Shown: piece after piece, positions 8,873 through 40,036 of the stretch
Numbering within the stretch: the stretch's first letter is position 1
How the letters are laid out: every line of letters starts with the position of its first letter
NCBI GenBank assembly: GCA_032085455.1
Contig: DAMDKS010000012.1
Location: 31,869 to 95,868 of the forward strand
From: Oceanobacillus sp.
GTDB lineage: Bacteria; Bacillota; Bacilli; Bacillales; Amphibacillaceae
Reading direction: 5' to 3'
DNA: 64,000 nucleotides
Made by a program: the position numbers and the translations under genes
Notes under the pieces: generated by a model
What the model was told of the DNA's origin: nothing
Databases searched by the model: none
Seen by the model: the letters and a program-made list of their open reading frames with translations, nothing else

Positions 8873-10021
8873 ATGAAAATAACCAATTTAGAATGTTTTT
8901 TAGTTCCGCCGCGCTGGTGTTTTTTAAAGATAGAAACAGATGAAGGAATTTCTGGATGGGGTGAACCGGTTATTGAAGGAAGCGCTAGTACGGTAAAGGC
9001 TGCGGTAGAGGAGTTAAGTGCGTATCTTATCGGTTCTAACCCTTTGAAAATTCAAGATACATGGAATAAATTGTATCGTGGCCGCTTTTATCGTGGTGGT
9101 CCGATTTTAATGAGTGCGATTGCTGGTATAGATCAGGCACTTTGGGATATTAAAGGGAAATTTTATCATGCGCCCGTTTATGAATTATTAGGTGGACCGG
9201 TTAGAGAAAATATTCGTGTTTATTCCTGGATTGGTGGCGACCGGCCAGCAGATGTTGGGGAAGCTGCGAAGAATGCTGCGGATAAGGGTTTTTCGGCTAT
9301 AAAAATGAATGCAACGGAAGAGCTGCAATATATTGATTCCTATAAAAAGGTGGATGAAACGATAGAAAGAGTGGCCGCTATTCGTGAAACTGCCGGTCGG
9401 GACGTGGGAATAGGAATTGATTTTCATGGCAGAGTGCATAAACCAATGGCAAAGATTTTGATGAAGGAATTAGAACCTTATCGTCCGATGTTTATCGAAG
9501 AGCCAGTTCTTCCTGAGAATAATGAGGCTTTACATGAGATAGCGAAGTATGCGCAGATCCCAATTGCTACTGGAGAAAGAATGTATTCGAGATGGGATTT
9601 CAAAAAAGTATTACAAGAAGGTATTGTTGATATTATTCAACCTGATTTATCACATGCAGGGGGAATAACCGAGGTCAGTAAAATAGCAGCCATGGCAGAA
9701 GCCTATGATGTTGCGCTTGCGCCACACTGCCCATTGGGACCGATTGCGCTTGCATCTTGCCTTCAGGTGGATGCGATTTCCCATAATGCGGTTATTCAAG
9801 AACAAAGCATGGGAATTCATTATAATCAGGGGAATGATGTCCAGGATTACTTAATTGATAAACATGTATTTCAATTTAAACAGGGATATGCGAATTTGCC
9901 AAAAGGACCAGGCTTAGGCGTTGAAATTGATGAGGACTACGTTAGGGAAAGGTCTCAAATGGGTCATTCATGGAAGAATCCAGTGTGGCGGCATACAGAT
10001 GGCAGTATAGCTGAATGGTAA
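8873..10021 (+). CDS. dgoD: D-galactonate dehydratase (enolase superfamily)
   Basis: It is near-colinear with E. coli DgoD: MKIT...[19 protein letters not shown]..., [49 protein letters not shown] and [13 protein letters not shown]. Confidence 0.92.
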
Positions 10022-10094
10022 TGAATGCAGACGAGATTGCAAGATGTTACAAGGCAATAACATATGCGATAGTGTAGCACGAAGGAGAATGAAG

Positions 10095-15231: not shown

Positions 15232-15917
15232 GGGGAAGAATTAGCACTCCATGCTAAGAGGATGTTAAAGGAGCAAGAAAAGGTTGCCGAAAAAATCAGT
15301 AACATGAAAAATGAAGTTGCTGGTACGATAAGTGTTGGGGTTTCCAACTTTTTTGCTTTAAATAAAATGCCTAAATTATTGCGTCTTTTCCAGGAAAAAT
15401 ACCCTAATGTTGAATGTCAAGTCATCACAGGATGGAGCAGTGAGATACACCGTTTGATTTTAAATCACGAGGTACATATTAGTGTTGTTAAAGGGGATTA
15501 CCCTTGGAAGGAAGAAAAGGAATTACTTTATGAAGAAGAAATTTGTGTCTTCGCCTTGGGATTTTACTTGGGAAGAGCTACCGACACTTCGACGAATTGA
15601 TTATTTAACAGATGAATTGATGAAATATTGTTGATAATTGGTGGTATCATCATTACAGTCAAAACCCTTATATTAATATTCAAGTGAACCAAGTTGAAAC
15701 ATGTAAGGAAATGGTAATAAATGGACTTGGCTATGCCATTTTAGCAAAATTAGTTGTCCGTCCTTATCCAGAATTATTTGTAAAACCCATCCATGACGCG
15801 TTTAATAAGCCGATTACACGAAATACATGGATGTATTATCACGCTGACTCTTTGCAGCTAAATATCGTTAGCGCTTTTATCAATTTTATTCAAACTTTGG
15901 ATGTAAAGACATTATAG
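15232..15917 (+). pseudogene. LysR-family regulator remnant (HTH lost, at least 2 frameshifts)
   Basis: GEELALHAKRMLKEQEKV...GTISVGVSNFFA... is the co-inducer domain. The reading jumps frame near 15560 (DFTWEELPTLRRIDYLTDELMKY) and near 15625 (DNWWYHHYSQNPYINIQVNQVETCKEMVINGLGYAIL). There is no N-terminal HTH. Confidence 0.7.
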
Positions 15918-17043: not shown

Positions 17044-17087
17044 CCACAGGAATAGGGTTTGCAGCCAGTGTTCCTGTGGTTTTTTTA
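17044..17087 (+). terminator. Rho-independent terminator
   Basis: CCACAGGAA ... TTCCTGTGG stem followed by T7. Confidence 0.75.
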
Positions 17088-17231
17088 TGACTTTCGTTAC
17101 GCTCAATTTATCTTTCCATTTGAAATAATAAAAAGGTTTTGGAATAATGTAATTCAATAACTAGTGATGCTAGATTGGGGAATGCCGCTGCAATAGAATT
17201 AAAAAGCGTCTTTTCAAAAAAATGATGAAAG

Positions 17232-19160
17232 GTGTGTGACGTATTGAAGATTCAAATAAAAGGAGATATTTCACCAATTATAGAAGGATTAAGTGAGCTG
17301 CAAGCGGAATATCATTTTAACTTATCCGATAAAGCTGATATTGTGCTCACCTGCAAGCAGCAAACAAGCAATGAAAAATTGCATATTATGTACAAAAATG
17401 GTGAAGGGACTATAGGCTATCGTCAAGCCAATCACTTTTTTAGGGCGTTTGGCATTTTTTTGGAACAGCTGCAAAAAGGGGAAAGTCATTTTATCATAGA
17501 GGAGACACCGCAATTTAAAACAATTGGTCCAATGCTTGACCTTTCCCGAAATACTGTAATGAAATTAGAAACATTCAGTGAGCTAATTCGAAAGCTGGCG
17601 ATAATGGGTTTTAATTCTGCAATGCTTTATATGGAAGATACGTATGAAATAAAGAATGAACCTTACTTTGGGTATTTGCGGGGCAGGTATTCTCAGGGAG
17701 AGTTAAAAGCAATGGATGATTATGCGCATCAATTTGGCATTGAACTGATTCCTTGTATTCAGACTTTGGCACATTTGGAGGAGTTTTTAAAATGGGATGC
17801 AGCATCCGATTATAAAGATACAAAAGGCGCATTGCTGCTGGAAAGCGAGCGGACGTATGAACTGTTGGAGAATATGATTGGTTCGGTTACAGGTCCTTTT
17901 CGGAGTATGCAGATTCATATTGGAATGGATGAAGCGGAAGAAGTGGGGCGTGGGCGATTTTTAAATCAACACGGTTATCAATCGCGTTTTGAATTAATGG
18001 TCAATCATCTGAAAAAAGTATTGCAAATCACAGATCAATTCGGACTTGAAGCAATGATGTGGAGTGATATGTTTTTAAAACTGGCATCTGAGACAGGAGA
18101 TAACTATAGTAAGGAAACGAAATTACCGGATTATATTCTCGAACAGGTCCCGAATAATATTCAATTGATGTATTGGCAATACAATTCTGCTGATATAAAG
18201 CATTACGATCAAATGTTTAAACAGCATAAAAAATTTGAAAAGATGCCTGCATTTGCAGGAGGAATGTGGATTTGGAACAGTTTTGCACCAAATTATCATC
18301 TTTCATTGACAGCGAGTCAGGCAGCATTAACTGCTTGTAAAGCAAATGATGTGGAGGATATTTTTATAACACTTTGGGGTGACGATGGGGCAGAGAATAA
18401 CGTCTATAGAGCCTTGCTCGGTTTACAATTTTATGCAGAGCATGCTTACTGCAATGATGTTGCTCAAGAAAAGCTAAAGGAAAGGGCAATGTTTTGTACA
18501 GGAGTGGATGCAGAATTATCGCTTTTACTCAATGAATTGGATACACCTCCAGGCGTAGAGCAGGGTAATTTGGAGCAAACAAATCCCTCAAAGTTTCTGC
18601 TTTGGCAGGATGTGCTGCTTGGTGTATTTGATAAGCATGTAGAAGGACACGACTTACAAACACACTATGAAGCTCTCGGAGAGAAAATAAGAAAACAGAG
18701 GAAAATGCATCCTTCGAAATGGGATTTTATTTTTGAAGTGCCAGAAAAGCTTTGTCATGTATTGGCAATCAAAGCTACTATCGGTGTGGAATTAAAGCAG
18801 GCATATGACAGTGGAAATCATAAAGCACTTGAAATGCTCGCAAACACACAGCTTCCAGAGCTTATCACTCGAGTGAAGAAACTTCGAGAAGCCCATCGCG
18901 ATGAGTGGCTGCATATGAATAAACCGTTTGGCTGGGAAGTTATTGATATTCGCTACGGAGGACTTGTGAATCGCCTGGAAACGGCAATGAAAAGAATCAA
19001 TGATTATTTACAGCATCGCATTGAATCTATTGATGAATTAGCACAGGAACGCTTGTATTATTCTGCACGTGCTGCAGCTTCCAGTGGCTTAGGGTGGTGC
19101 AGTTATTATTACCGGATGGCTACACCAAACGCGTTCTTCCATATCCTTCCAATACATTAA
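17232..19160 (+). CDS. Glycoside hydrolase family 20 (beta-N-acetylhexosaminidase-type), cytoplasmic
   Basis: 642 aa with no signal peptide. LDLSRN...MLYMEDTY...YFGYLRGRYSQ.E...CIQTLAHL and the catalytic-type motif HIGMDEA (HxGxDE) are present. The exact start is uncertain (a TTG at 17244 is possible). Confidence 0.78.
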   Translation: MCDVLKIQIKGDISPIIEGLSELQAEYHFNLSDKADIVLTCKQQTSNEKLHIMYKNGEGTIGYRQANHFFRAFGIFLEQLQKGESHFIIEETPQFKTIGPMLDLSRNTVMKLETFSELIRKLAIMGFNSAMLYMEDTYEIKNEPYFGYLRGRYSQGELKAMDDYAHQFGIELIPCIQTLAHLEEFLKWDAASDYKDTKGALLLESERTYELLENMIGSVTGPFRSMQIHIGMDEAEEVGRGRFLNQHGYQSRFELMVNHLKKVLQITDQFGLEAMMWSDMFLKLASETGDNYSKETKLPDYILEQVPNNIQLMYWQYNSADIKHYDQMFKQHKKFEKMPAFAGGMWIWNSFAPNYHLSLTASQAALTACKANDVEDIFITLWGDDGAENNVYRALLGLQFYAEHAYCNDVAQEKLKERAMFCTGVDAELSLLLNELDTPPGVEQGNLEQTNPSKFLLWQDVLLGVFDKHVEGHDLQTHYEALGEKIRKQRKMHPSKWDFIFEVPEKLCHVLAIKATIGVELKQAYDSGNHKALEMLANTQLPELITRVKKLREAHRDEWLHMNKPFGWEVIDIRYGGLVNRLETAMKRINDYLQHRIESIDELAQERLYYSARAAASSGLGWCSYYYRMATPNAFFHILPIH

Positions 19161-19181
19161 ATGAAAGGAACTTATAAAAAT

Positions 19182-20198
19182 ATGACAAAAAAAACTTATG
19201 ATATTTTCGTTGGCTGCTATGGAAAGGAATGTGAAGAAACAATCCATTGGCTTGAGTTTAATGCTTTCAATGGAAAGATTCACCATGCTGCCTCATTTTC
19301 AGGAGTGGAAAATCCGTCCTATTTAACGATTGACCCTAAGCGGAATGGTTTGTATGTCATTAGTGAAAAAGAACAGGGAGAGGTGTTAAGCTTTGAAATC
19401 AATCGCCAGCTGAAAACGATTAATCCGAGGAATCGATTTCCCGCGAAAGGCGGACCGTGTTATATAGAACTAGGGGAAAAAGGTAATTATTTATTTACTG
19501 CAAATTACGGTGGTGGCAGCGTGATTGTTCATCAATTAAATCAACAAGGAGAAATAATAAAAGAAACAGATTTTAAAACGTATCATTCTGAAATCTCCAA
19601 ATTGCATACCATTAGAAGGATTCCAGAAACATCTTTTTACGTCGCAACAGATTTGGGACGTAATAAATTATATTTCTATCGATTTCATGAAGCATCGGGC
19701 AAATTACAGCAAATACAGGAAGTAGACACACCAAGTTGTTCTGGTCCAAGACATATTGCATTTCATCCGTTTTTAAATATGTTTTATGTTGTGAATGAAT
19801 TTGATTCTGCGGTTCTTGTTTACGCTTATGATGCGTCATTGGAGCACATAAAGCTGGAACAAATGATTCCAGCATTGCCAGACTATTTTAAAGGAGAAAA
19901 TTTTGGAGCGGAAATAACCTTTTTGGATTACTGCGTTTATGTATCCAATCGCGGTCATCACTCGATTGCTGTATTTAAGGTTTTACAAGATGGAAAGCTG
20001 GAAGCACTTTCCCATATTGATACTACTGGAAAGTGGCCGCGCCATTTTATTTGCATACCAAATAGTAATTATATAATAGTCGCATATGAGCATACAAATG
20101 AATTAGTTGTTATGGAAAGGGAAGAAGGAGGAAACATGAAAATAAATGAAAATCGTTTTTCGGTCGAAAGGCCGGTATGTATACAGTTTCTGGCTTAA
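19182..20198 (+). CDS. 7-bladed beta-propeller lactonase (YkgB/6-phosphogluconolactonase family)
   Basis: It is colinear with B. subtilis YkgB: GPCY, TANYGGGSV, ATDLGRNKLYFY, GPRHIAFHP, VSNRGHHSIAVF and WPRHF. Confidence 0.82.
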   Translation: MTKKTYDIFVGCYGKECEETIHWLEFNAFNGKIHHAASFSGVENPSYLTIDPKRNGLYVISEKEQGEVLSFEINRQLKTINPRNRFPAKGGPCYIELGEKGNYLFTANYGGGSVIVHQLNQQGEIIKETDFKTYHSEISKLHTIRRIPETSFYVATDLGRNKLYFYRFHEASGKLQQIQEVDTPSCSGPRHIAFHPFLNMFYVVNEFDSAVLVYAYDASLEHIKLEQMIPALPDYFKGENFGAEITFLDYCVYVSNRGHHSIAVFKVLQDGKLEALSHIDTTGKWPRHFICIPNSNYIIVAYEHTNELVVMEREEGGNMKINENRFSVERPVCIQFLA

Positions 20199-20256
20199 TA
20201 GTGGTTGGGAATTGGTATCTACAAAATATTTTTGTTATAAACATTATAATGTTATG

Positions 20257-20285
20257 TTGACTTAAGTTTTGAATAGTGCTATTAT
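20257..20285 (+). promoter_or_regulatory. SigA-type promoter TTGACT-17-TATTAT
   Basis: Good -35 and -10 hexamers with 17-nt spacing, about 225 nt upstream of the SBP gene. Confidence 0.55.
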
Positions 20286-20295
20286 TTTGGATAAG

Positions 20296-20310
20296 TTGAA
20301 AACGCTTACT
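20296..20310 (+). promoter_or_regulatory. cre site TTGAAAACGCTTACT
   Basis: It fits WTGNAANCGNWNNCW at every constrained position. It lies just downstream of the predicted -10. Confidence 0.5.
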
Positions 20311-20510
20311 AAAAAGTATCAGAAACAGCTTTTGTTTTCTGTTTCTGAAAAGGGGTGATACATAGAAGATTATTGATAGAAAAATAGATTTGTTAAGGGT
20401 GGCTCATTGGTTCTTCTTATTTCTATTAGGAGGCTGTTTAAAAGGTCAGGTAAAAATAATACCTTGAATTTCTTGGATCTTTTGAACACAAATTACAAGG
20501 AGGGTAAGTT

Positions 20511-22127
20511 GTGAAGCTAAGAAAATCGTTATTATTCATGATCGTTATTTTATTTGTAAGCGTTTTAGCTGCTTGTAATTCAGATAGCTCAGCACAGGAT
20601 GATGAAGCAAATTCTTCCGGCGATGTAAACGAATCAGGAATGCCAATTGTTGATGAAGAAATGGAATTAACTTTTTTTGCGAATAAACCTGCTCAGAATG
20701 AAAATAATGATTGGAATGACATTCTCATCTGGAACCATTATAAGGACTTATCAAATATCAATGTGAAATGGGATTTGGTTAGTCCCGATGCAATTGAGGA
20801 AAAGAGAAATCTGGCTCTTGGTAGTGGAGATTTGCCCGATGCATTTTTCCTTTCTCAACTAACAAACACGGATCTATTAAGATATGGTGGTCAAGAGGTT
20901 TTCCTGTCATTAAATGATTTAATTGAAAAGCATGCTCCCAACCTAACGGCTTTAATGGAAAATGACCCAAGCATTCGAAAAGCAATCACGTTTCCAGATG
21001 GAAATATTTATTCCATGCCTTCCCTTATTGAGGAGGATTTCCTTTCCTTGCGCCTAAGTGCAAGACCGTGGATTAATGAGGACTGGCTGAATGAATTAAA
21101 TATGGATATCCCAGAAACAACAGGAGATTTTTACGAATATTTAAAAGCAGTGAAGGAACTGGATCCAGTTGGCGGCGGAAAAACAATACCATACGGTGGA
21201 ACAGATATTATAGAGCTAGTGCAGTGGTTATCCGGCTCATTCGGTGTAATGAATCATGGACCGGCTAATACAAATTTTGATTTAGATCCGCAAGATGATT
21301 CGAAATTACGGTTCTATGTGACAACTGATGAATATAGAGAACTGATGGAATACATTCACAAGCTGTATGACGAAGGATTAATCGACCAAAGTATCTTTAC
21401 GATTGATTGGGGTCAATTCCTTGCAAATGCATCAGATAATTTATATGGAAGTATGACTTTCTACGATCCAATTGAATTATTTGGTGAAGAAATCGGCTCA
21501 CAATATAATAATTTAGCAGCATTAGAGGGACCAGATGGTCATCAGCATTACAACAAACTTTCTCCATCTGTTTGGGATACTTCTAATTTAGTCATTACAA
21601 ATGAAAACCCGAATCCAGCAGCGACGGTAAGATGGATGGATCACTTCTACAGTGAAGAAGGGGCAAAGCTTTATTACATGGGTGTTGAAAACGAAACCTT
21701 TGAAGAAAAAGATGGGGAAATTGTTTATATGGATCATATTTTAAACCCGGAAGGCGATATGACGTTTGAACAAGCGATAGCAAAACAGTTAACGTGGTTA
21801 GGTTCCATTAACGGAATTATTAAAGCGGATTATTTCCAGGGTGGGGAATCTGCACCACAATCAATGAAAGCTGCAGAGGCTGCAGCGCCATTTGTACCAG
21901 ATGAGATTTGGGCAAGATTCACATTTACTGACGAAGAAAATAGAATTCTTCAGTCAGTTGGACAAGACGTCAACAGCTATGTAGAGGAAATGACTGATAA
22001 ATTTATTACTGGGGATGAAGATCTGGATGGCTGGGATAATTATGTCACAACATTGGAGCAAATGGGGCTCGAAGATGTAATTGAAGTCTATCAAAATGCT
22101 TATGAGAGATATGTAGAAAATAATTAG
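20511..22127 (+). CDS. ABC transporter extracellular solute-binding lipoprotein (large LplA-type)
   Basis: 538 aa with lipobox LAAC. Size and organisation match LplA/YtcQ-type polysaccharide-fragment binding proteins. Confidence 0.82.
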   Translation: MKLRKSLLFMIVILFVSVLAACNSDSSAQDDEANSSGDVNESGMPIVDEEMELTFFANKPAQNENNDWNDILIWNHYKDLSNINVKWDLVSPDAIEEKRNLALGSGDLPDAFFLSQLTNTDLLRYGGQEVFLSLNDLIEKHAPNLTALMENDPSIRKAITFPDGNIYSMPSLIEEDFLSLRLSARPWINEDWLNELNMDIPETTGDFYEYLKAVKELDPVGGGKTIPYGGTDIIELVQWLSGSFGVMNHGPANTNFDLDPQDDSKLRFYVTTDEYRELMEYIHKLYDEGLIDQSIFTIDWGQFLANASDNLYGSMTFYDPIELFGEEIGSQYNNLAALEGPDGHQHYNKLSPSVWDTSNLVITNENPNPAATVRWMDHFYSEEGAKLYYMGVENETFEEKDGEIVYMDHILNPEGDMTFEQAIAKQLTWLGSINGIIKADYFQGGESAPQSMKAAEAAAPFVPDEIWARFTFTDEENRILQSVGQDVNSYVEEMTDKFITGDEDLDGWDNYVTTLEQMGLEDVIEVYQNAYERYVENN

Positions 22128-22134
22128 CAGAGCT

Positions 22135-22180
22135 TTCGAGGGGCGGGAGGGGGATGCCCCCCTGTCCTCCTCCCTTTTTA
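22135..22180 (+). terminator. GC-rich intercistronic stem-loop / partial terminator
   Basis: AGGGGG-ATG-CCCCCT core with a flanking GC-rich extension and a T5 tail, located between the SBP and permease genes. Confidence 0.4.
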
Positions 22181-22232
22181 ATAAATCAAAGTAAGCAGTG
22201 ACATACGCTTTAAAAAGGAGGTTCATTCGTAT

Positions 22233-23168
22233 ATGGAAATACAGCCACCGTCAAGTCGAAGCAGAGGCTATAGAGTAAAGAAAAACTTGCTGGCAAATTG
22301 GCAATTATACTTATTTCTTTTACCAGTTATGACTTATTTTTTTATATTTCATTATATCCCGATGTACGGCATTCAAATCGCTTTTAAAGATTATTTCGCA
22401 AACCTTGGTATTAATGGGAGTCCGTGGATTGGGTTTGAGCATTTTGAGAGGTTTTTCAACTCTTATTACTTTTGGAGACTTTTAAAGAATACTATTATCC
22501 TGAATCTCTATATGCTGCTGCTTTTTCCATTACCGATTATTTTTGCCTTAGCTTTAAACGAACTGCGAAATGGACCGTTTAAAAAATGGACGCAAACACT
22601 TACATACGCACCTCATTTTATCTCCGTTGTGGTTGTTGTCGGAATGCTTGTGGCTTTTTTAGATCCAAACACCGGTCTTGTAAACCATGTTGTCCGTTTG
22701 TTAGGTATGGATGCCATTCCTTTCTTGACAAGTCCCGAATGGTTTAGGCATATATTTGTCTGGTCGGGGCAATGGCAATCATTGGGATGGGGAACGATTA
22801 TATATTTAGCAGCTTTAGCTGGGGTTAACCCAGAATTGCATGAAGCAGCGAAAGTAGACGGAGCAACTAGAATGCAGCGGATTTTGAGGATTAATATACC
22901 AAGTATTATGCCAACCATTGTGATTTTATTTATTTTGAATATCGGTAACTTTATGCAGATAGGCTTTGAAAAAGTTTTATTAATGCAAAATAACTTAAAC
23001 TCAGGAACTTCAGATATCATTCAGACCTATGTTTATGAGACAGGTATTTTGCAAGGGCAATATAGCTTTGCAGCTGCAATTGGTTTATTTGAGTCTGTTA
23101 TTAATATTATTCTGCTGATTACAGTAAACCAGATTGCAAGAAAAGTAAGTGATAACAGTCTATGGTAG
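22233..23168 (+). CDS. Sugar ABC transporter permease (LplB-type)
   Basis: 311-aa polytopic protein. The EAA loop AAKVDGATRMQRILRINIPSI is present. Confidence 0.85.
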   Translation: MEIQPPSSRSRGYRVKKNLLANWQLYLFLLPVMTYFFIFHYIPMYGIQIAFKDYFANLGINGSPWIGFEHFERFFNSYYFWRLLKNTIILNLYMLLLFPLPIIFALALNELRNGPFKKWTQTLTYAPHFISVVVVVGMLVAFLDPNTGLVNHVVRLLGMDAIPFLTSPEWFRHIFVWSGQWQSLGWGTIIYLAALAGVNPELHEAAKVDGATRMQRILRINIPSIMPTIVILFILNIGNFMQIGFEKVLLMQNNLNSGTSDIIQTYVYETGILQGQYSFAAAIGLFESVINIILLITVNQIARKVSDNSLW

Positions 23169-23183
23169 AGAGGGGATGAAACG

Positions 23184-24080
23184 ATGGCGAAGTTTAGTCT
23201 GTCAGATAAGGCATTTGATAGGATCAATACTATCTTTGTGCTGCTCATTACACTCATTATTATTTATCCGCTTATTTTTGTGATTAGTGCATCAATCAGT
23301 GATCCACAGGCTGTTAATACCGGAAAGATGTGGCTATGGCCAGTTGATGTGACATTTAATGGTTTTGTTCGCGTGTTTCAAAATGCGGCGATCTGGACCG
23401 GGTACAAAAATACGCTTATTTATACAGGTGTTGGAATTTGCATTCATTTATTTATTTTGCTTCCTGCAGCATATGCATTATCAAGGAAGGAATTAATGGC
23501 GAAGAAGCTGATTCTATGGTTTATCTTGTTTACAATGCTATTTAATGGGGGATTGGTTCCGACTTATTTAGTTGTTAAGGGTCTTGGAATGCTAGATACG
23601 ATGTGGGCGATTGTTATTCCAGGTGTTATTGGTGCCTGGTCCATCCTTGTTGCGCGTACCTTTTTTCAGCAAACCATTCCAGATCAGCTCGTTGAAGCAG
23701 CGAAGATTGATGGTGCAAGCGATATCTATTTATTCTTAAAGATTGTCTTGCCACTTTCTCTTCCAATCATTGCAGTCATGGCTCTCTTTCATGGAGTAGC
23801 CCTGTGGAATCAATATTTCAATGCGTTAATCTATTTGTCAGATAAGAGTAAGTATCCACTGCAATTAATACTTAGGCAAATATTAATTTTAAATGAGGTG
23901 AGCACAGATAGTGCTGCAAATGCGGCAGGCTCTGCACAATCATTTGCAGATCAGGTGAAAACTGCATCACTTGTAAAGTATGCTGTAATCATTGTGTCTG
24001 CACTGCCATTATTAATTGTCTATCCATTTTTACAACGATACTTTGTCAAAGGGGTATTAATTGGCTCTGTCAAGGAATAA
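23184..24080 (+). CDS. Carbohydrate ABC transporter permease (LplC-type)
   Basis: 298-aa polytopic protein. The EAA loop AAKIDGASDIYLFLKIVLPLS is present. Confidence 0.85.
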   Translation: MAKFSLSDKAFDRINTIFVLLITLIIIYPLIFVISASISDPQAVNTGKMWLWPVDVTFNGFVRVFQNAAIWTGYKNTLIYTGVGICIHLFILLPAAYALSRKELMAKKLILWFILFTMLFNGGLVPTYLVVKGLGMLDTMWAIVIPGVIGAWSILVARTFFQQTIPDQLVEAAKIDGASDIYLFLKIVLPLSLPIIAVMALFHGVALWNQYFNALIYLSDKSKYPLQLILRQILILNEVSTDSAANAAGSAQSFADQVKTASLVKYAVIIVSALPLLIVYPFLQRYFVKGVLIGSVKE

Positions 24081-24095
24081 AAATATCGTTGGGTC

Positions 24096-24740
24096 ATGAT
24101 ACGATTAATAAAGGAGGCGGCAGACTTGTCCGGGTTCATTAAAGGCTATTATCAATTTTCAGTTTGGGTAACACGACTTGCGTATTTAAACGTATTATGG
24201 ATTTTGTTTTCATTGCTCGGTTTCATATTATTTGGGTTGATGCCTGCAACTGCAGCAATGTTTGCCGTTGTTCGGAAATGGAATATGGGGGAAAAAGATA
24301 TTGCTATTTTACCGCTGTTTTGGAAGACGTATAAAGAAGCGTTTATAAAGACAAATGGATTAGGACTTATTTTGTTTGTTGCTGGATATCTGTTAACAGT
24401 AGAATTCCAAATTATAAGTACACAAACCAGTCTTGTTTATCTTATTGGCCGCTTTACTATATTGGCTATTGGGCTGTTATATATTATGATTCTACTTTAT
24501 TTTTTCCCGATTTTTGTTCATTTTGAGTTAAAGACCATTCATTATCTGAAATGGCCGTTTATTATAGGGATTGTTCACCCCATTCTAACCTTATTTTTAT
24601 TTGCTTGTATTGGTTTGTTGCTTTATATCACGTTTATTACGGTTCCTGCTTTACTCTTCTTTTTTGGGGCAAGTATTTCGGCATTCATTATTATGTGGGG
24701 GGTGTCGCTAACTTTTTCAAAGTATGAAGTGAGTACTTAA
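24096..24740 (+). CDS. YesL-family (DUF624) membrane protein
   Basis: 214-aa membrane protein. The motif GLMPATAAMFAVVRKW and its position after LplBC-type permeases are typical of YesL. Confidence 0.7.
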   Translation: MIRLIKEAADLSGFIKGYYQFSVWVTRLAYLNVLWILFSLLGFILFGLMPATAAMFAVVRKWNMGEKDIAILPLFWKTYKEAFIKTNGLGLILFVAGYLLTVEFQIISTQTSLVYLIGRFTILAIGLLYIMILLYFFPIFVHFELKTIHYLKWPFIIGIVHPILTLFLFACIGLLLYITFITVPALLFFFGASISAFIIMWGVSLTFSKYEVST

Positions 24741-24764
24741 TGTAAGTGAAGGGAGTTTTCTGAA

Positions 24765-26336
24765 ATGGAAAAGATAATTGGCGAATTATTTGTGATTGGT
24801 TTTCATGGTAAAAAGGTGCCAAAGGAAATAAAAGAATTGATTCATCGCTATCATATTGGTGGCATTATTTTGTTTACCCGGAATATCGGAACTCCTGAAG
24901 AAGTCCTTTCATTAACTGCAGCACTTCAGAGTGAGGCTAAAGCGGCAGGATATACGCAGCCGCTCCTCATTTGTATTGATCAGGAAAACGGGGCAGTGCG
25001 CCGTTTAGGAGAAGGGACGACAATTTTTCCAGGATCGATGGCTCTTGGGGCAAGTGACAGTCCGGAAAATGCGTATAATGTAGGTTTTGCAACAGGAAAG
25101 GAATTATTGGCACTGGGAATTAACTGGAACTTAGCACCTGTTGTTGATGTGAATAATAATCCTGAAAATCCAGTAATTGGCGTTCGTTCTTTTGGTGAAT
25201 CACCTAAGAAAGTTGCAAAGCTTGGGAAAGCAATGATGAAGGGAATGCAGGATGCGGGAGTTGTAACAACGCTGAAGCATTTTCCTGGGCATGGGGACAC
25301 AAATACAGACTCTCATTTATCTCTGCCAACGATTCAGCATCAGATGGAACGCTTGGAAGCTGTGGAACTCTTTCCATTTAAAGAAGGTATCAAAGCTGGA
25401 GCCGATCTAATTATGACGGCACATATTCATTTTTCAGCTATCGAACAAGAAAAAGATAAACCAGCAACACTATCAAAAGCTGTAATTACCGGGCTGCTCA
25501 GAGAGCGATTAGCTTATTCTGGTGTTGTTACAACAGATTGTATGGAAATGAAGGCAATATCGGAGACGATTGGGACAGAAAAAGGAGCGGTTGCTGCATT
25601 GGAGGCTGGAGCGGATATGGTAATGATTTCGCATACACTTGAGCGCCAAAAAGGAGCATTGCAGGAAGTCATGCAAGCAGTGAAATCCGGAAAGCTTGAT
25701 CAGGCAGCTCTTAGGACCTCTTCCGAGCGTATCAGAAGTTTAAAAAACACCTATTTACACTGGGATCATCTATTTAGCACTCCAAAAGCGCTTGAGGCTG
25801 TTGGAACGAAGGAACATGAGGAGCTAAGCTATAACGTGTATCGGGAATGTGTCACACTTGTAAAAAATGAAGGCATTGTTCCATTGACAAGTAAAAATGT
25901 CCTTGTTCTGACGCCAGAAGATCATTCTGGAACACCTGCAGAGGATAAAAAATACAGCGGAATCAGATTAGTTGAAGCTATGCGAGCATATTGTCCAGAA
26001 GCTGATGAAAAGTATATTTCGGAGCAAATGCCGGAAAGTGAAAGCAGTTCTTTATTAGCAGTTGCAGATTTATACACATGTATAATTGTCGGCACATTAA
26101 ACCTGGCAGAAAACCCAAAACAGCAGAAGCTCATTCATAAAATAGTGGCAAAGGGGATTCCAGTAATTGCTGTTGCAATGAGAAGCCCTTATGATGTGTC
26201 TTATTTATCAGTGGTTCAAGCGTGCATTTGCACTTATGACTATACGTATCCAGCTTTAAAAATTGCTGCAGGTGCTATCTTCGGGAAGGAACAAGTCTCA
26301 GGGAAATTGCCTGTTATGATTGAAACACATAGCTGA
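24765..26336 (+). CDS. nagZ: Glycoside hydrolase family 3 beta-N-acetylhexosaminidase (NagZ-like), cytoplasmic
   Basis: IGGIILF, DQENG.V.R, NLAPVVDV and KHFPGHGDTNTDSH are GH3 motifs. No signal peptide was seen. Confidence 0.82.
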   Translation: MEKIIGELFVIGFHGKKVPKEIKELIHRYHIGGIILFTRNIGTPEEVLSLTAALQSEAKAAGYTQPLLICIDQENGAVRRLGEGTTIFPGSMALGASDSPENAYNVGFATGKELLALGINWNLAPVVDVNNNPENPVIGVRSFGESPKKVAKLGKAMMKGMQDAGVVTTLKHFPGHGDTNTDSHLSLPTIQHQMERLEAVELFPFKEGIKAGADLIMTAHIHFSAIEQEKDKPATLSKAVITGLLRERLAYSGVVTTDCMEMKAISETIGTEKGAVAALEAGADMVMISHTLERQKGALQEVMQAVKSGKLDQAALRTSSERIRSLKNTYLHWDHLFSTPKALEAVGTKEHEELSYNVYRECVTLVKNEGIVPLTSKNVLVLTPEDHSGTPAEDKKYSGIRLVEAMRAYCPEADEKYISEQMPESESSSLLAVADLYTCIIVGTLNLAENPKQQKLIHKIVAKGIPVIAVAMRSPYDVSYLSVVQACICTYDYTYPALKIAAGAIFGKEQVSGKLPVMIETHS

Positions 26337-26380
26337 TAGAAAATGAAGTTGTTGTCGGGGTAAAGAAGGAGATTAAAAAC

Positions 26381-27496
26381 ATGAGGCAAATTGTAAGAAA
26401 TGCCAAATTAGTAAGTGGAGACATCATCGATATTATTATAAAGGATAAAGAGATTGAATCAGTCACTAAATCATTCCGAGGTGAAGCTGATATTTTATTT
26501 GATGCAGCTGGCATGTATGTTTCACCAGGCTGGATTGATCTTCATACACATGCATTTCCAAAATATGAACCATATTGTGCAATACCAGATGATATTGGCT
26601 ATAAAACAGGTGTAACGACCGTTGTTGATGCCGGCAGCAGTGGTGCAGATACAATAGATGAACTTTATTCTATTGCCAATCAAGCAAAAACAAGGATATT
26701 TTCCCTGTTGAATATATCGCGAATTGGTTTAAAAGAACAAAATGAATTATCTGATATGACCTCTATTTCATTTGAGGCAATTGAAGAAGCAATAGCGAAA
26801 TATCCTGATTTTATTGTTGGCTTGAAAGCAAGAATGAGTGGGAGTGTAGTATCCTCTAACGGGATAAAGCCGCTACAGCTTGCGAAGCAGTTCAGTAAAA
26901 AGTTAAGCTTGCCAATTATGGTTCATGTAGGCAGCTCTCCCCCTGTGCTGGAAGAAATACTGTCATATCTAGAAAAAGGGGATATATTAACGCATTGCTT
27001 CCATGAGAAAGACAGAAATCATATATTTCGTGATGACTGGACAATTGAGCCAGCCCTTTTACAAGCAATGAAGCGCGGTATCTATTTAGATATTGGTCAC
27101 GGGACATCCAGCTTTTCCTTTCAAATAGCAAAAAAGGCAAAAGCGATGGGAATTCACTTTAATAGTATTGGGACAGATATTTATAAGAAAAATCAGCAAT
27201 TTGGACCTGTTTATGATATGGCAACAACATTAACAAAATTCCTTGTGTTAGGCCATACATTAGAAGAAGTCATTCGGGCTGTCACGGAAACACCTGCAAG
27301 GATAATAAAAAGGCCAGAGTTAGGTAAATTGGAAAAAGGCACGCCTGCTGAACTGACCTTTTTTACCGTTGAGAAAGCACAAAAAGAACTCAAAGATGCA
27401 TTAGGAAATACACTAACTGCAGATGTCGTCATCTGTGAGCAAGCAGTACTTTTAGGTGGTGAGCTAATTGAACTTAAAAAGAGTCATCAATGCTAG
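26381..27496 (+). CDS. Amidohydrolase/deacetylase-family metallohydrolase (EF_0837-type)
   Basis: GWIDLHTHAF metal-binding start and a dihydroorotase-like fold. It is always paired with SelA-related and KDGP-aldolase genes in the conserved EF_0837-0840-type cluster. Confidence 0.75.
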   Translation: MRQIVRNAKLVSGDIIDIIIKDKEIESVTKSFRGEADILFDAAGMYVSPGWIDLHTHAFPKYEPYCAIPDDIGYKTGVTTVVDAGSSGADTIDELYSIANQAKTRIFSLLNISRIGLKEQNELSDMTSISFEAIEEAIAKYPDFIVGLKARMSGSVVSSNGIKPLQLAKQFSKKLSLPIMVHVGSSPPVLEEILSYLEKGDILTHCFHEKDRNHIFRDDWTIEPALLQAMKRGIYLDIGHGTSSFSFQIAKKAKAMGIHFNSIGTDIYKKNQQFGPVYDMATTLTKFLVLGHTLEEVIRAVTETPARIIKRPELGKLEKGTPAELTFFTVEKAQKELKDALGNTLTADVVICEQAVLLGGELIELKKSHQC

Positions 27497-28547
27497 CGGC
27501 AGGATGAGCAAATTGGGTGTTTCTACTCTTTCCGATAACGTGCTGGATGGAATGAAATATGGTGGCCAGCATTATTTTGATATGGATGAGCTGATGGAGG
27601 AATCCGGAAAGCTAGTCGCGCAATATATAAAAACGGAACATGCGCTTATCACAAATTCGGCATCTGCAGCAATTGTGCTAGCAATCGCTGGGATTATTAC
27701 CAAAGCCAATCCTTCCTTCGTTGAGTATTTGCATGAAGCAGGGGTGACACAGCCTAACGATTTTTTAATGATGAAGGGGCATAATGTCGATTATGGAGCA
27801 CCAATTGAAGTGATGATGCGACTGGGCGGAGCATTCCCGAAAGAAGCAGGCTATGCTAATGGATGTACCATCATGCAGTTGGAACAGGCAATAACAGATC
27901 TAACTGCTGGAATATTATTTGTAAAATCACATCACTGTGTACAAAAGAATATGCCTTCCTTACAAGAAGTAAAACAGCTTTGCGAAAAGCATCAATTGCC
28001 GCTCGTATTAGATGCAGCAGCCGAAGAAGACATTCAAGCGTATGCTGATGAAGCGGATTTAATTATTTTCAGCGGCTCGAAAGCAATTCAAGGTCCGACA
28101 TCCGGAATTTTGGCTGGTAAAAAGGAGTATGTTGCATATGCTTCAGGACACCTGAAAGGGATTGGCAGAGCAATGAAAGTCGGCAAAGAAGCTATCTTCG
28201 GCTTATTGAATGCATTGGAGCAATATCATTTTGAAAAGTCAGGGAGCAAAAAGCAGCTAAGGGAACTTGAGAAGCTGAAACAGCTGGAGCTTTTAGAAGG
28301 TGTTCGCATTGCAATAAGGAAAGATGAGGCTGGCAGGGATATATATCGAGGGTGTATCTGCATTGCTGAAGATAAAGCAAAGTTAAATGCTGCAGCACTT
28401 GTTCAACAATTAAAAGCTGGTAGTACAGCTATTTTTACACGTGATTATCATGCGAACAATGGGAGCTTTGATATAGACCCAAGACCATTACGGACAGGAG
28501 ATATGGAAGTAATTATTGAAAAAATAAAACATCTATTAGGAGGCTGA
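27468..28547 (+). CDS. dgaE: SelA-related PLP enzyme, DgaE-like D-glucosaminate-6-phosphate ammonia-lyase
   Basis: It is colinear with Salmonella DgaE: LKRVINA.G.M..LGVS, GHNVDYGAP, VKSHHCVQK, LPL..DAAAEED, SG.KA...PTSG and GI.RAMK.GKE. It has a TTG start that overlaps the upstream gene. Confidence 0.82.
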   Translation: MNLKRVINASGRMSKLGVSTLSDNVLDGMKYGGQHYFDMDELMEESGKLVAQYIKTEHALITNSASAAIVLAIAGIITKANPSFVEYLHEAGVTQPNDFLMMKGHNVDYGAPIEVMMRLGGAFPKEAGYANGCTIMQLEQAITDLTAGILFVKSHHCVQKNMPSLQEVKQLCEKHQLPLVLDAAAEEDIQAYADEADLIIFSGSKAIQGPTSGILAGKKEYVAYASGHLKGIGRAMKVGKEAIFGLLNALEQYHFEKSGSKKQLRELEKLKQLELLEGVRIAIRKDEAGRDIYRGCICIAEDKAKLNAAALVQQLKAGSTAIFTRDYHANNGSFDIDPRPLRTGDMEVIIEKIKHLLGG

Positions 28548-28551
28548 TGTT

Positions 28552-29295
28552 TTGCTGGATTCTCACTTTTACCAAGATCGTATCTGTTTGAATGTATTAG
28601 CTAAGGATATTGAAAATGCAAAACAAATCTATGAGATAATGAATGGAAATGTGCTGATTGGCATAATATCCAGCCGCTATGAAACAGTGGAGCAGGCACT
28701 TGCGGAAATAGAAGACTTTGATAAAGCGGTAGACGCAGCAATTTCAATTGGTTTGGGTAATGGCGATCCTAATCAATGGCGGATGGTTGCCGCTATTTGC
28801 CGAGAATACAAACCAAGGCATGTAAATCAAGTATTTTCTAAAGTAGGTTATACGAGGGCTTGTGTGAATAATGATATAAGTTTTATTAATGGACTTGTCA
28901 GCCTTGCCGCGAAACCAGGATTTGTCAACATTGCCACGGGACTACTCCATCAACAGCCAATCATCGTTGAAGCAAGAGCAGCGATTCATTTAATCAGAGA
29001 GATGGGCGGGAATTCTATTAAAATATTCCCATTGCAAGGTTTAAAAAGGATGGAAGCATATCAGGAATTAATGAAGGTTTGTGCGGAAGAAGCATTTACT
29101 GTTGAACCAACAGGCGGGATTAACCTGACTAATTTTAAACAAATAGTGGAAACCGCCTTGCAAGCAGGTGTAAAAAGAGTTATCCCCCATGTTTATTCTT
29201 CCATCATTGATTCCTCGTCATGTTTAACAAATGTAAAGGACATAGCCGAATTGTATAAGATGACGAAGGAGCTGGGAGATGCGTATGAAACATAA
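28552..29295 (+). CDS. KDGP aldolase family protein (DUF1341/EF_0839-type oxo-acid lyase)
   Basis: 247 aa, recognised by family resemblance and conserved cluster context. Confidence 0.65.
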   Translation: MLDSHFYQDRICLNVLAKDIENAKQIYEIMNGNVLIGIISSRYETVEQALAEIEDFDKAVDAAISIGLGNGDPNQWRMVAAICREYKPRHVNQVFSKVGYTRACVNNDISFINGLVSLAAKPGFVNIATGLLHQQPIIVEARAAIHLIREMGGNSIKIFPLQGLKRMEAYQELMKVCAEEAFTVEPTGGINLTNFKQIVETALQAGVKRVIPHVYSSIIDSSSCLTNVKDIAELYKMTKELGDAYET

Positions 29296-30298
29296 AATCA
29301 AGGCATTTGGTGAAGTCATGATGCGCTTGGATGTTCCAGGGAATCGCAAGCTTGAGCAAACACGTACATTGGACATCTTCTTTTCCGGGACGGGAGTAAA
29401 TGTATTGAGTGCGTTAAGTAAATATGGGCATGAAACAGCTATGGTGACAACCTTGCCAGCAAATTCAATAGGTGATGCAGCCGTTTCCTTTATACGGTCT
29501 TTAGGAATATCAACCACGGATATCAATCGAGACGGGGAATATATTGGGATGTATTTTATGGAAAATGGTTTCGGTTTTCGTCCATCTGTTGTTACATATA
29601 CCAATAGGGAATCAAGTTCATTTTGTATGTCAACATTATCTGATTATGATTTGGATAATTTGTTAGAAGACACAGGTATGATTCACTTTTGTGGAATTGG
29701 ATTAGCTATTTCAAAAAATGGACGTGAGCTTATGATTGCTGTTGCCGAAAGGGCAAAGGAAATGGGAATTACCATTGTTTTTGATTGTAATTTTCGGCCG
29801 AAGCTCTGGAAAGGCCAACTAGATAGAGCGAAACACTGCTATGAACAAATGCTGGAGCTGGCTGATGTCTGCTTCATGACAGAGAGGGATGCAAAGGCAT
29901 TGCTTGGAATGAAAACAGATAAAATAAATCGAAAAGAACAAATTGTTGAATTGATTCCCCAGATAGCAAAACGGTATCATATTAAAATAATAGCTGGTAC
30001 AATCAGAAAAAATACAAAAAACAATGAGAATCAGATTGAGGGATTTTTATTTCAGGATTCCATTTTTTCATTTTCCAGGGCATATACATTTCAAATACTA
30101 GATCGTGTTGGTGGAGGAGATGGATTTGCCAGTGGAATAATGCACGGGCTGGTACAGGACCTTTCTATGAATGATATAATAGAATTTTCCATGGCTGCCG
30201 GGGTTTTAGCTCAAACGATTCCTGGGGACTCACCATTGTGCACGGACAGTGAGGTTTGGGCATTGGCCAACAACTATAGAACAGATCTGGAAAGGTAG
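29285..30298 (+). CDS. PfkB-family sugar(-acid) kinase, KDG-kinase-like
   Basis: It has N-terminal FGEVMMRL and the PfkB signature DRVGGGDGFASG. Confidence 0.8.
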   Translation: MKHKIKAFGEVMMRLDVPGNRKLEQTRTLDIFFSGTGVNVLSALSKYGHETAMVTTLPANSIGDAAVSFIRSLGISTTDINRDGEYIGMYFMENGFGFRPSVVTYTNRESSSFCMSTLSDYDLDNLLEDTGMIHFCGIGLAISKNGRELMIAVAERAKEMGITIVFDCNFRPKLWKGQLDRAKHCYEQMLELADVCFMTERDAKALLGMKTDKINRKEQIVELIPQIAKRYHIKIIAGTIRKNTKNNENQIEGFLFQDSIFSFSRAYTFQILDRVGGGDGFASGIMHGLVQDLSMNDIIEFSMAAGVLAQTIPGDSPLCTDSEVWALANNYRTDLER

Positions 30299-30305
30299 AT
30301 TACAG

Positions 30306-31013
30306 ATGAAATTAAGTCTAAGACACGGCTCTTTATATCTGCAAGTGAAGGACATTTTAAAGGAACGGATTATCACTGGGAAGTATAAGAAAGATGCATT
30401 TATTCCCTCAGAGCCAGAGCTGGAGCAAGAATTTGGGGTAAGTAAAATTACCATTCGAAATGCAGTAGAACAATTGGCGCAGGAAGGGTATGTGGAAAAG
30501 AGAAGTGGTATTGGAACAAAGGTATTAGCAAATCAGGTTGTTTCCAAGCTGTCAAAAGGACAGCGGTTTTCTGAGTACTTAGTTGGCGAAGGTCATCAAT
30601 TGAGTAAGCAGCTAATTCAAGTATCGGTAGTGGATAATCCGGCTTTTCCAATCAGTGAGCTTGGAGGGGATAAAACGCATTGTGTTGAACGGCTTTATAC
30701 TTTAAATGGAAAGCCCTATATTCATTTTTGCCACTATATCCCAATTCATATTCCTTTGCCTGAGGATACGGAGGAATTTTCCAATTCATTATATGATATA
30801 CTTTATCATCAAGGAGTCCACCTCTACCGATTTAAAGATGAATTTGGTGTTGCTGTGCCGGAACAGAATATTGCTCATATGTTAGGGGTGGAAGAAAAGG
30901 CACTGCTTATGCGCGAGCGTTTTTCGTATGATATAAATGATAAGCTTATTGAGTACTCCGTGGCTTATTATAATACGGATATGCAAAAATATATCGTTAA
31001 TTTTGACGTGTAA
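30306..31013 (+). CDS. GntR/HutC-family transcriptional regulator (UTRA effector domain)
   Basis: HTH segment PSEPELEQEFGVSKITIRNAVEQLAQEGYV and a C-terminal UTRA-like domain. The start was chosen at MKLSLRHG. Confidence 0.85.
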   Translation: MKLSLRHGSLYLQVKDILKERIITGKYKKDAFIPSEPELEQEFGVSKITIRNAVEQLAQEGYVEKRSGIGTKVLANQVVSKLSKGQRFSEYLVGEGHQLSKQLIQVSVVDNPAFPISELGGDKTHCVERLYTLNGKPYIHFCHYIPIHIPLPEDTEEFSNSLYDILYHQGVHLYRFKDEFGVAVPEQNIAHMLGVEEKALLMRERFSYDINDKLIEYSVAYYNTDMQKYIVNFDV

Positions 31014-38013: not shown

Positions 38014-38032
38014 TGTATCGTTTTCCTTTCTT

Positions 38033-40035: not shown

Positions 40036-40036
40036 A

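Follow-up and report, generated by a model that had tools for sequence, protein, structure and literature searches.

We analysed a 64,000-nucleotide stretch of DNA from Oceanobacillus sp. (contig DAMDKS010000012.1; hereafter the window), in which positions 17232-31013 of the plus strand form a cluster of 12 co-directional open reading frames (ORFs) with short or overlapping junctions. From its gene content and its conservation among genomes, this cluster is probably a regulon for the import and catabolism of C1-oxidised chito-oligosaccharides, (GlcNAc)n-GlcNAc1A, that is, oligomers of N-acetylglucosamine (GlcNAc) ending in N-acetylglucosaminate (GlcNAc1A), which are the soluble products of chitin-active AA10 lytic polysaccharide monooxygenases (LPMOs). 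More tentatively, and with somewhat less than even confidence, we suggest that it represents a complete, undescribed oxidative-chitin regulon of Bacillota, which would run from GlcNAc1A through the phosphorylated intermediates GlcNAc1A-6-phosphate (GlcNAc1A-6-P) and glucosaminate-6-phosphate (GlcN1A-6-P) to 2-keto-3-deoxy-6-phosphogluconate (KDPG).

A first-pass annotation, made from the sequence of the window, had read the cluster as a pathway for N-acetylhexosamine (HexNAc) oligosaccharides with an oxidised end. This overall interpretation is still the best-supported explanation, and every element of it that could be tested in silico held up. The 12 ORFs lie at the coordinates that the annotation had quoted, on the plus strand, and family searches against Pfam and NCBIfam agree with its gene list; the motifs HIGMDEA and KHFPGHGDT, which it had given for the GH20 and GH3 enzymes, were read in the translations as MQIHIGMDEAEEV and LKHFPGHGDTNTDSH. 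The genes encode, in order, a GH20C hexosaminidase, a lactonase, a solute-binding protein (SBP), two ATP-binding cassette (ABC) permeases, a DUF624 protein, a GH3 enzyme, and the five proteins of what is here called the catabolic unit: an amidohydrolase, a DgaE-family lyase, a DagF-type aldolase, a PfkB kinase and a GntR/HutC regulator (Table 1).

Conservation, candidate operator and LPMO linkage

Homologs of the lactonase were searched for and their gene contexts were examined; one genome per species was scanned with an alignment of the lactonase subfamily, and the loci were scored for each protein of the cluster. All 13 lactonase orthologs with at least 37% identity adjoin GH20C and/or the catabolic unit, compared with 0 of 73 more distant lactonases, and the subfamily is distinct, showing no more than 35% identity to generic lactonases. 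Synteny was observed in at least 10 Bacillaceae lineages. The full gene order is present in Pseudogracilibacillus (2 species), Virgibacillus, Lentibacillus, Oceanobacillus, a Bacillota metagenome-assembled genome (MAG) and others, and O. iheyensis HTE831 (locus L089) carries the identical 12-gene cluster, GH3 included. The annotation had supposed that two modules normally seen separately are joined here; the division of the lactonases and the gene order shared across genera indicate that the two belong to one conserved unit. Across the orthologous loci, identity is 82-85% for the LplB-like permease and 85-87% for the LplC-like permease, and the DUF624 protein, which accompanies this class of ABC importer, is kept in all LplA-type versions of the cluster. 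A metagenome scan with the lactonase alignment yielded one more locus of the subfamily (L096), and the remaining loci were used as background. Contig L004 (GCA_017162415.1, JAFJTT010000060.1) comes, like L005, from an assembly labelled Ralstonia pickettii and is of Bacillaceae type, probably as a result of contamination or mislabelling; its GH20C, lactonase and SBP are 79-93% identical to those of the window at the protein level.

The genes from SBP to GntR form one gap-free string behind a single promoter, operator and site resembling a catabolite-responsive element (cre). The candidate operator, AACATTATAATGTT, was found by a palindrome search of promoter regions. At no more than one mismatch it occurs once in the window, against 0.04 hits expected from dinucleotide shuffling, and not at all in 2.17 Mb of unrelated loci, a control set that is richer in GC. 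Perfect or 1-mismatch copies occupy the equivalent position at the SBP promoter in L001, L002, L004, L005, L008, L009, L089 and L096, and further copies stand ahead of the catabolic unit in L006, L010, L014, L088, L090, L091 and L092, which cover B. cereus-group, Cytobacillus, Paraliobacillus, Sporosarcina, Paenibacillus and Niallia loci. Since a GntR ortholog is present in every locus that bears the site, AACATTATAATGTT is very probably the operator of the GntR/HutC regulator, and this protein is predicted to be a repressor acting at the palindrome at 20240.

The annotation had also noted a GntR/HutC regulator and a promoter-proximal cre site. Both exist, but the cre site is part of the internal promoter in front of the SBP gene rather than of the GH20C promoter. 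The window contains 9 cre-like sites against 5.1 expected, a count that is not significant by itself; when seven SBP promoters were compared, five (those of the window, L001, L002, L004 and L008) had the box at the same position, and L009 has a weaker sixth copy. A box that lies near the promoter and is kept in orthologs points to an operon under the control of CcpA.

LPMOs that oxidise chitin at C1 release oligomers ending in GlcNAc-lactone or GlcNAc1A. Three genomes carry, within the cluster, a gene for an AA10 LPMO that bears a CBM5/12 module. In V. halodenitrificans (L007) and in a 51-kb contig (L094) it separates GntR from GH20C, and in a MAG locus (L009) it stands directly upstream of GH20C; in L009 a perfect AACATTATAATGTT was found about 100 nt upstream of the LPMO gene. 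The LPMO gene of O. iheyensis (L095) is unlinked to the cluster and has two 1-mismatch copies of AACATTATAATGTT about 130 and 257 nt upstream of its start, compared with 0.02 such hits expected at this locus; the proximal copy abuts a TTGACG -35-like box, as in the SBP promoters. The LPMOs are most similar to chitin-active C1 oxidisers, namely BtLPMO10A, BlLPMO10A, a Listeria enzyme and CBP21. The search for LPMO genes that the annotation had advised was thus answered by the three linked genes and by the operator at the O. iheyensis gene, and not by the window, which holds none.

The spread of the catabolic unit was traced via homologs of the amidohydrolase. In the B. cereus group (L088) the five genes are followed by a gene for a GntP-family permease, a gluconate-type acid importer, and no glycosidase gene is present; because the unit and its AACATTATAATGTT operator pair there with an acid permease, the substrate is expected to be an acid. 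The unit occurs in Sporosarcina with another ABC system, a ROK kinase, a GH4 enzyme and a MupG-like 6-phospho-glycosidase, in Niallia with EIIC of a phosphotransferase system (PTS) and a MupG-like enzyme, and in Paenibacillus (L091) alone. The Niallia version retains the kinase, which argues for a disaccharide with the acid at its reducing end. MupG-like genes (6-phospho-N-acetylmuramidase family) were located beside the catabolic unit, together with the AACATTATAATGTT operator, at L011:19358-20443, L090:8884-9996 and L092:5805-6893. The same aldonate-ended disaccharide may thus also be handled through a front end based on a phospho-glycosidase.

The kinase is present in every ABC-, GntP- or disaccharide-PTS-linked copy that was compared among Bacillales. 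In a proteobacterial plasmid locus (L093), the amidohydrolase, DgaE and the aldolase occur with PTS-like SFCGS/DUF4310-4312 proteins, a BglG antiterminator and ptsP, and the kinase is absent; the PTS-linked dga operon of Salmonella has no kinase either (PMC9529869). It seems that the kinase appears whenever the amino-aldonate would enter the cytoplasm unphosphorylated, including the case of a disaccharide PTS that phosphorylates the non-reducing sugar only. This distribution supports the kinase as the source of the phosphate and the aldonate as the reducing-end unit of a glycoside. The annotation's proposal that the kinase supplies the phosphate fits these data and the retention of Arg-301, Arg-332 and Arg-346 in the lyase; its statement that the set is usually PTS-linked does not hold in Bacillales, in which a kinase almost always accompanies the unit.

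Predicted pathway and enzyme families

In the pathway that we propose, the SBP, the two permeases and the DUF624 protein would import the oligomer with energy from an unlinked ATPase, no ABC ATPase gene being found within the cluster. GH20C, with help here from the NagZ-type GH3, would strip GlcNAc in the cytoplasm and finally cut GlcNAc-GlcNAc1A, and the lactonase, co-transcribed with GH20C, would open ends or products in the lactone form. The PfkB kinase would phosphorylate the amino-aldonate at O6 and the EF_0837-type amidohydrolase would take off the acetyl group, an order of the two steps that is provisional. The DgaE-like pyridoxal phosphate (PLP) lyase would convert D-glucosaminate-6-P to KDPG and ammonia, and DagF would cleave KDPG to pyruvate and glyceraldehyde-3-phosphate (GAP). 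The GntR/HutC protein would act via AACATTATAATGTT to repress the operon from SBP to GntR and, in related genomes, also the LPMO gene, and CcpA would act via the adjacent cre.

No signal peptide was seen on inspection of the translations of GH20C, the lactonase and GH3. GH20C contains the C-terminal domain PF18088 (236 bits) alongside the catalytic domain PF00728 and aligns end to end with S. gordonii GcnA (2epk, E=9e-122) and S. pneumoniae GH20C (5a6b, E=2e-115). Its catalytic GMDEA is aligned with that of GcnA, and the D-E pair together with the C-terminal helical domain place it in the GH20C/GcnA subfamily. A standard GH20 chitobiase halts at GlcNAc-GlcNAc1A (PMC13325158), and the pathway of marine Gammaproteobacteria needs a dedicated GH20, OngA, for this bond (PMC9537276). 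We infer that the GH20C of the window may free GlcNAc from the non-reducing end, including the final cut of GlcNAc-GlcNAc1A. The GH3 protein scored above the NagZ equivalog NF003740 (222 vs a cutoff of 207), and its KHFPGHGDTNTDSH agrees with the NagZ motif KH(F/I)PG(H/L)GxxxxD(S/T)H; its closest structures are GlcNAcases (PDB 6k5j and 4zm6, E=1e-116; B. subtilis YbbD/NagZ, E-90). As only two of the compared loci, those of the window and of O. iheyensis, have GH3, it appears to be an accessory trimming enzyme, and GH20C and the lactonase make the tightest pair.

The annotation had coupled the lactonase to the GH20 enzyme, and its ORF indeed begins one base past the GH20C stop, with a probable true start at M8 (19182); the likely starts of GH20C and GntR are 17244 (TTG) and 30306, respectively. 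The lactonase is a member of Pfam PF10282 only and lies under the cutoffs of the 6-phosphogluconolactonase equivalogs NF008258 and NF050136 (123 vs 370 and 169 vs 500, respectively). Its matches in the PDB are uncharacterised propellers (E-29) and the gluconolactonase PpgL of P. aeruginosa (E-24), and 6-phosphogluconolactonases are weaker matches too. GlcNAc-1,5-lactone is a classical inhibitor of such hexosaminidases, and for this reason the lactonase may serve to clear lactone-form ends or products that inhibit GH20 and GH3, the predicted reaction being the hydrolysis of GlcNAc-1,5-lactone-type ends or products. The signal/lipobox of the SBP reads ...VLAAC, and the structural relatives of this protein in the PDB (FusA, AlgQ1/2 and Smon0123) bind oligosaccharides, acidic ones included.

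The amidohydrolase scored above the TIGR03583 cutoff (511 vs 432), and its nearest PDB structure is 2ics (EF_0837; E=5e-98). Among its PDB hits at E<=1e-3, the others are 'dihydroorotase' and amidase entries, and no match to D-aminoacylase (1m7j, 3gip) or OngB was found. It is a candidate deacetylase of N-acetylglucosaminate or its 6-phosphate.

The lyase scored above the family model TIGR01437 (444 vs 385). The annotation had described it as a SelA-related enzyme colinear with DgaE, and it matched the D-glucosaminate-6-P ammonia-lyase of Salmonella (DGL, or DgaE; 7lc0) over the full length with 40% identity (E=6e-81). DGL requires a 2-amino-2-deoxy-aldonate-6-P, and manual docking on the Salmonella enzyme placed the 6-phosphate at Arg-301, Arg-332 and Arg-346, with His-162 and His-163 near C3/O6 (PMC9529869). 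K213, H162, R297, R301, R332 and R346 are kept in the window lyase and 12 orthologs; H163 is kept in 12 of these 13 sequences (that of the window included, one ortholog differing), and R226 is usually Lys. The kept phosphate-site residues favour a phosphorylated substrate, and thus phosphorylation before deamination, unlike in the marine pathway. The reaction proposed for the lyase is D-glucosaminate-6-P to KDPG and NH3.

For the aldolase, the score exceeded that of the DagF equivalog NF047796 (325 vs 300) and PF07071 gave 292 bits, which assigns it to the DgaF/DagF family, and its proposed function is the cleavage of KDPG to pyruvate and GAP. The best NCBIfam matches of the kinase are similar to kinases of 2-keto-3-deoxygluconate (KDG), all of them below cutoff (156 vs 440 for NF041332 and 73 vs 400 for NF052444), and its nearest structures are PDB 3ktn (E-69) and the T. 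maritima KDG kinase 2afb (E-52). We favour a role as a 6-kinase for GlcNAc1A or glucosaminate (GlcN1A), with a role as KDG kinase as the alternative.

Alternative explanations and described pathways

A number of points weigh against the proposed regulon. All of the component functions are predictions from comparative genomics. Neither an LPMO nor a chitinase gene is found within the 64-kb window, and GH18 chitinase genes occur in none of the cluster loci. The promoter of the GH20C-lactonase pair (17120-17148) is separate and has no AACATTATAATGTT, and the LPMO genes of L007 and L094 have none either; upstream of GH20C in all loci and of these two LPMO genes, the palindrome was absent even at 4 mismatches. 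The lyase is below the strict DgaE equivalog NF047797 (357 vs 600), and the assignment of the DGL phosphate site rests on manual docking. The KDG-kinase kinship of the PfkB protein would fit an alternative in which deamination comes first and KDG is then phosphorylated. Lactone ends made by LPMOs, moreover, hydrolyse spontaneously, and the need for a cytoplasmic lactonase is not obvious.

The last point leads to the most serious rival, since a proposal made for archaea explains a cytoplasmic lactonase. Native chito-oligosaccharides or HexNAc glycans would be imported, GlcNAc would be freed by GH20C and GH3, and an unlinked 1-dehydrogenase would oxidise GlcNAc or glucosamine (GlcN) to the 1,5-lactone; the lactonase would open the lactone, and the amidohydrolase, kinase, DgaE and DagF would produce pyruvate and GAP in an Entner-Doudoroff-like alternative to NagA/NagB. 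This gives the lactonase an obvious role, and a comparable route has been predicted for chitinotrophic natronoarchaea (PMC12343721). Genes for short-chain dehydrogenases (SDRs) do lie within a few kb of some loci. However, no dehydrogenase is conserved in the 17 cluster loci, and the nearby SDRs were rejected as a conserved GlcNAc dehydrogenase, being mutually non-orthologous (<=37% identity). In addition, the lactonase goes with GH20C and not with the catabolic unit, since the GntP, PTS/MupG and Paenibacillus versions of the unit have no lactonase gene; where GntP is the importer, the acid comes from outside the cell, and the regulon includes a secreted LPMO. We regard intracellular oxidation as quite unlikely.

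The same enzyme logic would also apply to another glycoside ending in an amino-aldonate, such as oxidised peptidoglycan (GlcNAc and N-acetylmuramic acid, MurNAc), a glycan of N-acetylgalactosamine (GalNAc) and galactosaminate, or an exopolysaccharide fragment. GH20C enzymes accept both GlcNAc and GalNAc, MupG-like genes accompany the catabolic unit in L011, L090 and L092, a GH101 gene is near the Cytobacillus locus, and the window itself has a PBP4 gene and a nearby MurNAc-recycling locus. Peptidoglycan genes are not conserved beside the cluster in other genomes, however, and the sole secreted enzyme repeatedly tied to the regulon is the CBM5/12-bearing AA10 of the chitin-active clade; we know of no natural source of galactosaminate-ended glycans. 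Such a substrate is unlikely in our judgement. That the cluster merely juxtaposes a chitobiose or N-glycan importer having GH20 and GH3 with a separate operon for free D-glucosaminate (or N-acyl-glucosaminate) is very improbable. In its favour are the copies of the catabolic unit that stand alone, in Paenibacillus (L091) and the B. cereus group (L088), the GH20C-lactonase pair found apart from the unit in Sporosarcina, and the separate promoter of GH20C. Against it, a single promoter, operator and cre serve the string that runs from the importer through the catabolic unit, many genera share the synteny, and the lactonase subfamily is found only with these partners.

We thus return to the catabolism of C1-oxidised chito-oligosaccharides, and it is reasonably likely, from the comparisons below, that the cluster encodes a non-orthologous version of the pathway for oxidative chitin utilisation, one that has a defined regulon. 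The annotation had remarked that marine Gammaproteobacteria possess such a route with other enzymes and was aware of none in Firmicutes. The marine (ong) pathway shares the logic of the cluster and none of its protein families, and no Firmicute route is described in the open-access papers and bioRxiv preprints searched, beyond which prior work may exist. The ong pathway was described in Pseudoalteromonas prydzensis and other marine Gammaproteobacteria by Jiang et al. 2022 and is reported from Gamma- and Betaproteobacteria only; its order is LPMO, TonB receptors, periplasmic OngA, an SSS transporter, OngB, OngC and RidA, KdgK and an aldolase (PMC9537276). Common to it and to the scheme proposed here are an LPMO that makes (GlcNAc)n-GlcNAc1A, a dedicated GH20, deacetylation, deamination and phosphorylation leading to KDPG, an aldolase, and a repressor of its own, apart from the hydrolytic chitin genes.

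The steps of the two run in parallel, but the protein families differ throughout. The cluster would combine ABC import of the oligomer with cytoplasmic hydrolysis, whereas ong uses TonB receptors, periplasmic OngA and an SSS monomer transporter. The deacetylase is of the EF_0837 type, in contrast to the D-aminoacylase-type OngB (subtype V, Cys/His/His), and deamination would be carried out by a fold-type-I SelA-like DgaE lyase rather than by OngC, which is of the D-amino-acid-deaminase type and acts on unphosphorylated GlcN1A. The aldolase is DagF (PF07071) in the cluster and KdgA/Eda in ong. OngD, a RidA protein, has no counterpart in the cluster, and the lactonase of the cluster is not mentioned for ong (PMC9537276). 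The intermediates of the cluster are probably phosphorylated, but those of ong are unphosphorylated until KDG.

The D-glucosaminate dga operon of Salmonella encodes the PTS DgaABCD, DgaE (DGL) and DgaF (Miller 2013; Phillips 2018-2022, PMC9529869). The cluster resembles it in the family of the lyase, which keeps the catalytic Lys, His pair and Arg cluster, in the DagF aldolase and in the predicted conversion of KDPG to pyruvate and GAP. The mannose-type PTS DgaABCD and the sigma-54 activator DgaR are found neither in the cluster nor among the annotated ORFs of the window, and the cluster has in addition the amidohydrolase, kinase, glycosidases, lactonase and oligosaccharide ABC importer. The substrate predicted for it is an N-acetylated, glycosidically linked aldonate, whereas that of dga is free D-glucosaminate. 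The EF_0837/EF_0838/EF_0839 set, the function of which is given in E. faecalis papers as unknown or 'possibly amino sugar metabolism', is matched by window proteins above the TIGR03583, TIGR03581 and TIGR01437 cutoffs; the cluster differs in joining this set to a kinase, GntR, the ABC importer, GH20C and the lactonase. For the natronoarchaea, a route was predicted in 2025 in which glucose dehydrogenase converts GlcN to glucosaminate, followed by a kinase and a DgaE homolog (PMC12343721). There too a kinase and a homolog of DgaE are linked to the breakdown of chitin, KDPG is the product, and the route is a prediction; it differs in placing intracellular deacetylation before oxidation of GlcN and in being without a link to LPMOs, a lactonase, GH20C or an EF_0837 amidohydrolase.

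Many Gram-positive bacteria, Bacillus, Enterococcus, Listeria and Lactiplantibacillus among them, have LPMOs, and to our knowledge the fate of their aldonic-acid products is known for marine Gammaproteobacteria only. For Gram-positive bacteria the cluster suggests an answer that can be tested. Its enzymes are unrelated to the marine ones, so that the two pathways would have evolved convergently. If the proposal is true, four new activities would be expected, namely a chitobionate-cleaving GH20C, a GlcNAc-lactone lactonase that protects hexosaminidases, a GlcNAc1A 6-kinase and a GlcNAc1A-6-P deacetylase, the last of which would give a function to the long-unassigned EF_0837 family. Functions would likewise be assigned to conserved 'hypothetical' families with orphan structures (EF_0837 2ics, the EF_0839-type aldolase and the SelA-like lyase). 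AACATTATAATGTT would be a new GntR operator that co-regulates a secreted LPMO, and the regulon so defined would tie LPMO expression to product catabolism. Three interchangeable front ends (ABC with GH20C, PTS or ABC with a MupG-like enzyme, and GntP) would explain how Gram-positive bacteria use LPMO products. The chitobionate hydrolase, GlcNAc-lactonase, and GlcNAc1A kinase and deacetylase would be candidate enzymes for chitin valorisation, and as culturable organisms with these genes, O. iheyensis HTE831 and B. cereus-group strains can serve as models.

Feature coordinates and neighbouring loci

Table 1. Genes and candidate regulatory elements of the cluster, with positions in the window
Feature	Position	Strand	Basis or remark
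Promoter-like element TTGAAA-17-AATAAT, extended TG, before GH20C-lactonase	17120..17148	+	3' of OpuAC terminator hairpin (~17045-17087)
GH20C/GcnA-type cytoplasmic beta-N-acetylhexosaminidase	17232..19160	+	PF00728 + PF18088
7-bladed beta-propeller lactonase	19161..20198	+	PF10282, 264 bits
Candidate operator, perfect 14-bp palindrome AACATTATAATGTT	20240..20253	.	abuts -35 of SBP promoter
Promoter-like element TTGACT-17-TATTAT, extended TG, for SBP-to-GntR unit	20257..20285	+	architecture kept in orthologous loci
cre-like site TGAAAACGCTTACT	20297..20310	+	1 mismatch to TGWAANCGNTNWCA; 12 nt past -10 of SBP promoter
LplA/AlgQ-type solute-binding lipoprotein, 538 aa, predicted for an oligosaccharide	20511..22127	+	SBP_bac_1 PF01547 (weak); lipobox
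GC-rich hairpin followed by T-run, 3' of SBP gene	22145..22174	+	probable partial terminator or mRNA stabiliser
ABC permease, LplB-like	22233..23168	+	BPD_transp_1 PF00528
ABC permease, LplC-like	23184..24080	+	BPD_transp_1 PF00528
DUF624 (YesL-like) membrane protein	24096..24740	+	PF04854
Two-domain GH3 NagZ-type beta-N-acetylglucosaminidase, cytoplasmic	24765..26336	+	NF003740
EF_0837-family metal amidohydrolase	26381..27496	+	TIGR03583
DgaE-family PLP ammonia-lyase	27468..28547	+	TIGR01437; 7lc0
DagF/DgaF-type KDPG aldolase	28552..29295	+	PF07071; NF047796
PfkB kinase, KDG-kinase branch	29279..30298	+	PF00294
GntR/HutC-family regulator with UTRA effector domain	30249..31013	+	PF00392 + PF07702

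The genes flanking the cluster are unrelated to it: upstream lies the gene of an OpuAC SBP with its own terminator and downstream a convergent PBP4 gene. The sequence TTTGAAATAATAAA is common to the GH20C promoter regions of the window (17100-17135) and O. iheyensis (L089:330-350), and it may either mark just the promoter or be a further regulatory site of the separately controlled GH20C-lactonase pair. A 1-mismatch AACATTATAATGTT precedes the OpuAC-type SBP gene just upstream of GH20C at L004:6595 and L005:75, and the counterpart in the window, at 15908, is degenerate with 3 mismatches. A 2-mismatch sequence resembling AACATTATAATGTT at 60029, inside a subtilase gene, is probably due to chance.

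A peptidoglycan/MurNAc recycling locus occupies 36853-47514 of the minus strand. It contains AnmK, a beta-lactamase-fold hydrolase, a double-GNAT protein, a BadF/BadG-type sugar kinase, an RpiR/SIS regulator, a MurQ-like SIS protein, the exo-beta-N-acetylmuramidase NamZ, two ABC permeases and an SBP. At 2371-11069 of the plus strand there is a sugar-acid catabolic locus with two xylose-isomerase-like TIM barrels, a KDPG/KHG aldolase, the 2-keto-3-deoxygalactonate kinase DGOK, a TctC/TctA tripartite transporter, an MR_MLE dehydratase and a 2-hydroxyacid dehydrogenase; this block is also upstream of the cluster in the closest related contig (L004:1-5959). A 112-aa ORF at 15262-15600 has a partial LysR substrate-binding domain and stands beside two orphan minus-strand ABC permease genes; the GC content at 12-16 kb is low (0.32-0.33), and the LysR fragment and the orphan permeases are possibly a decayed operon. 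The subtilase gene, at 58351-62640, encodes a 1429-aa secreted-type S8 enzyme with CarboxypepD_reg and glucodextranase-B/Ig-like domains.

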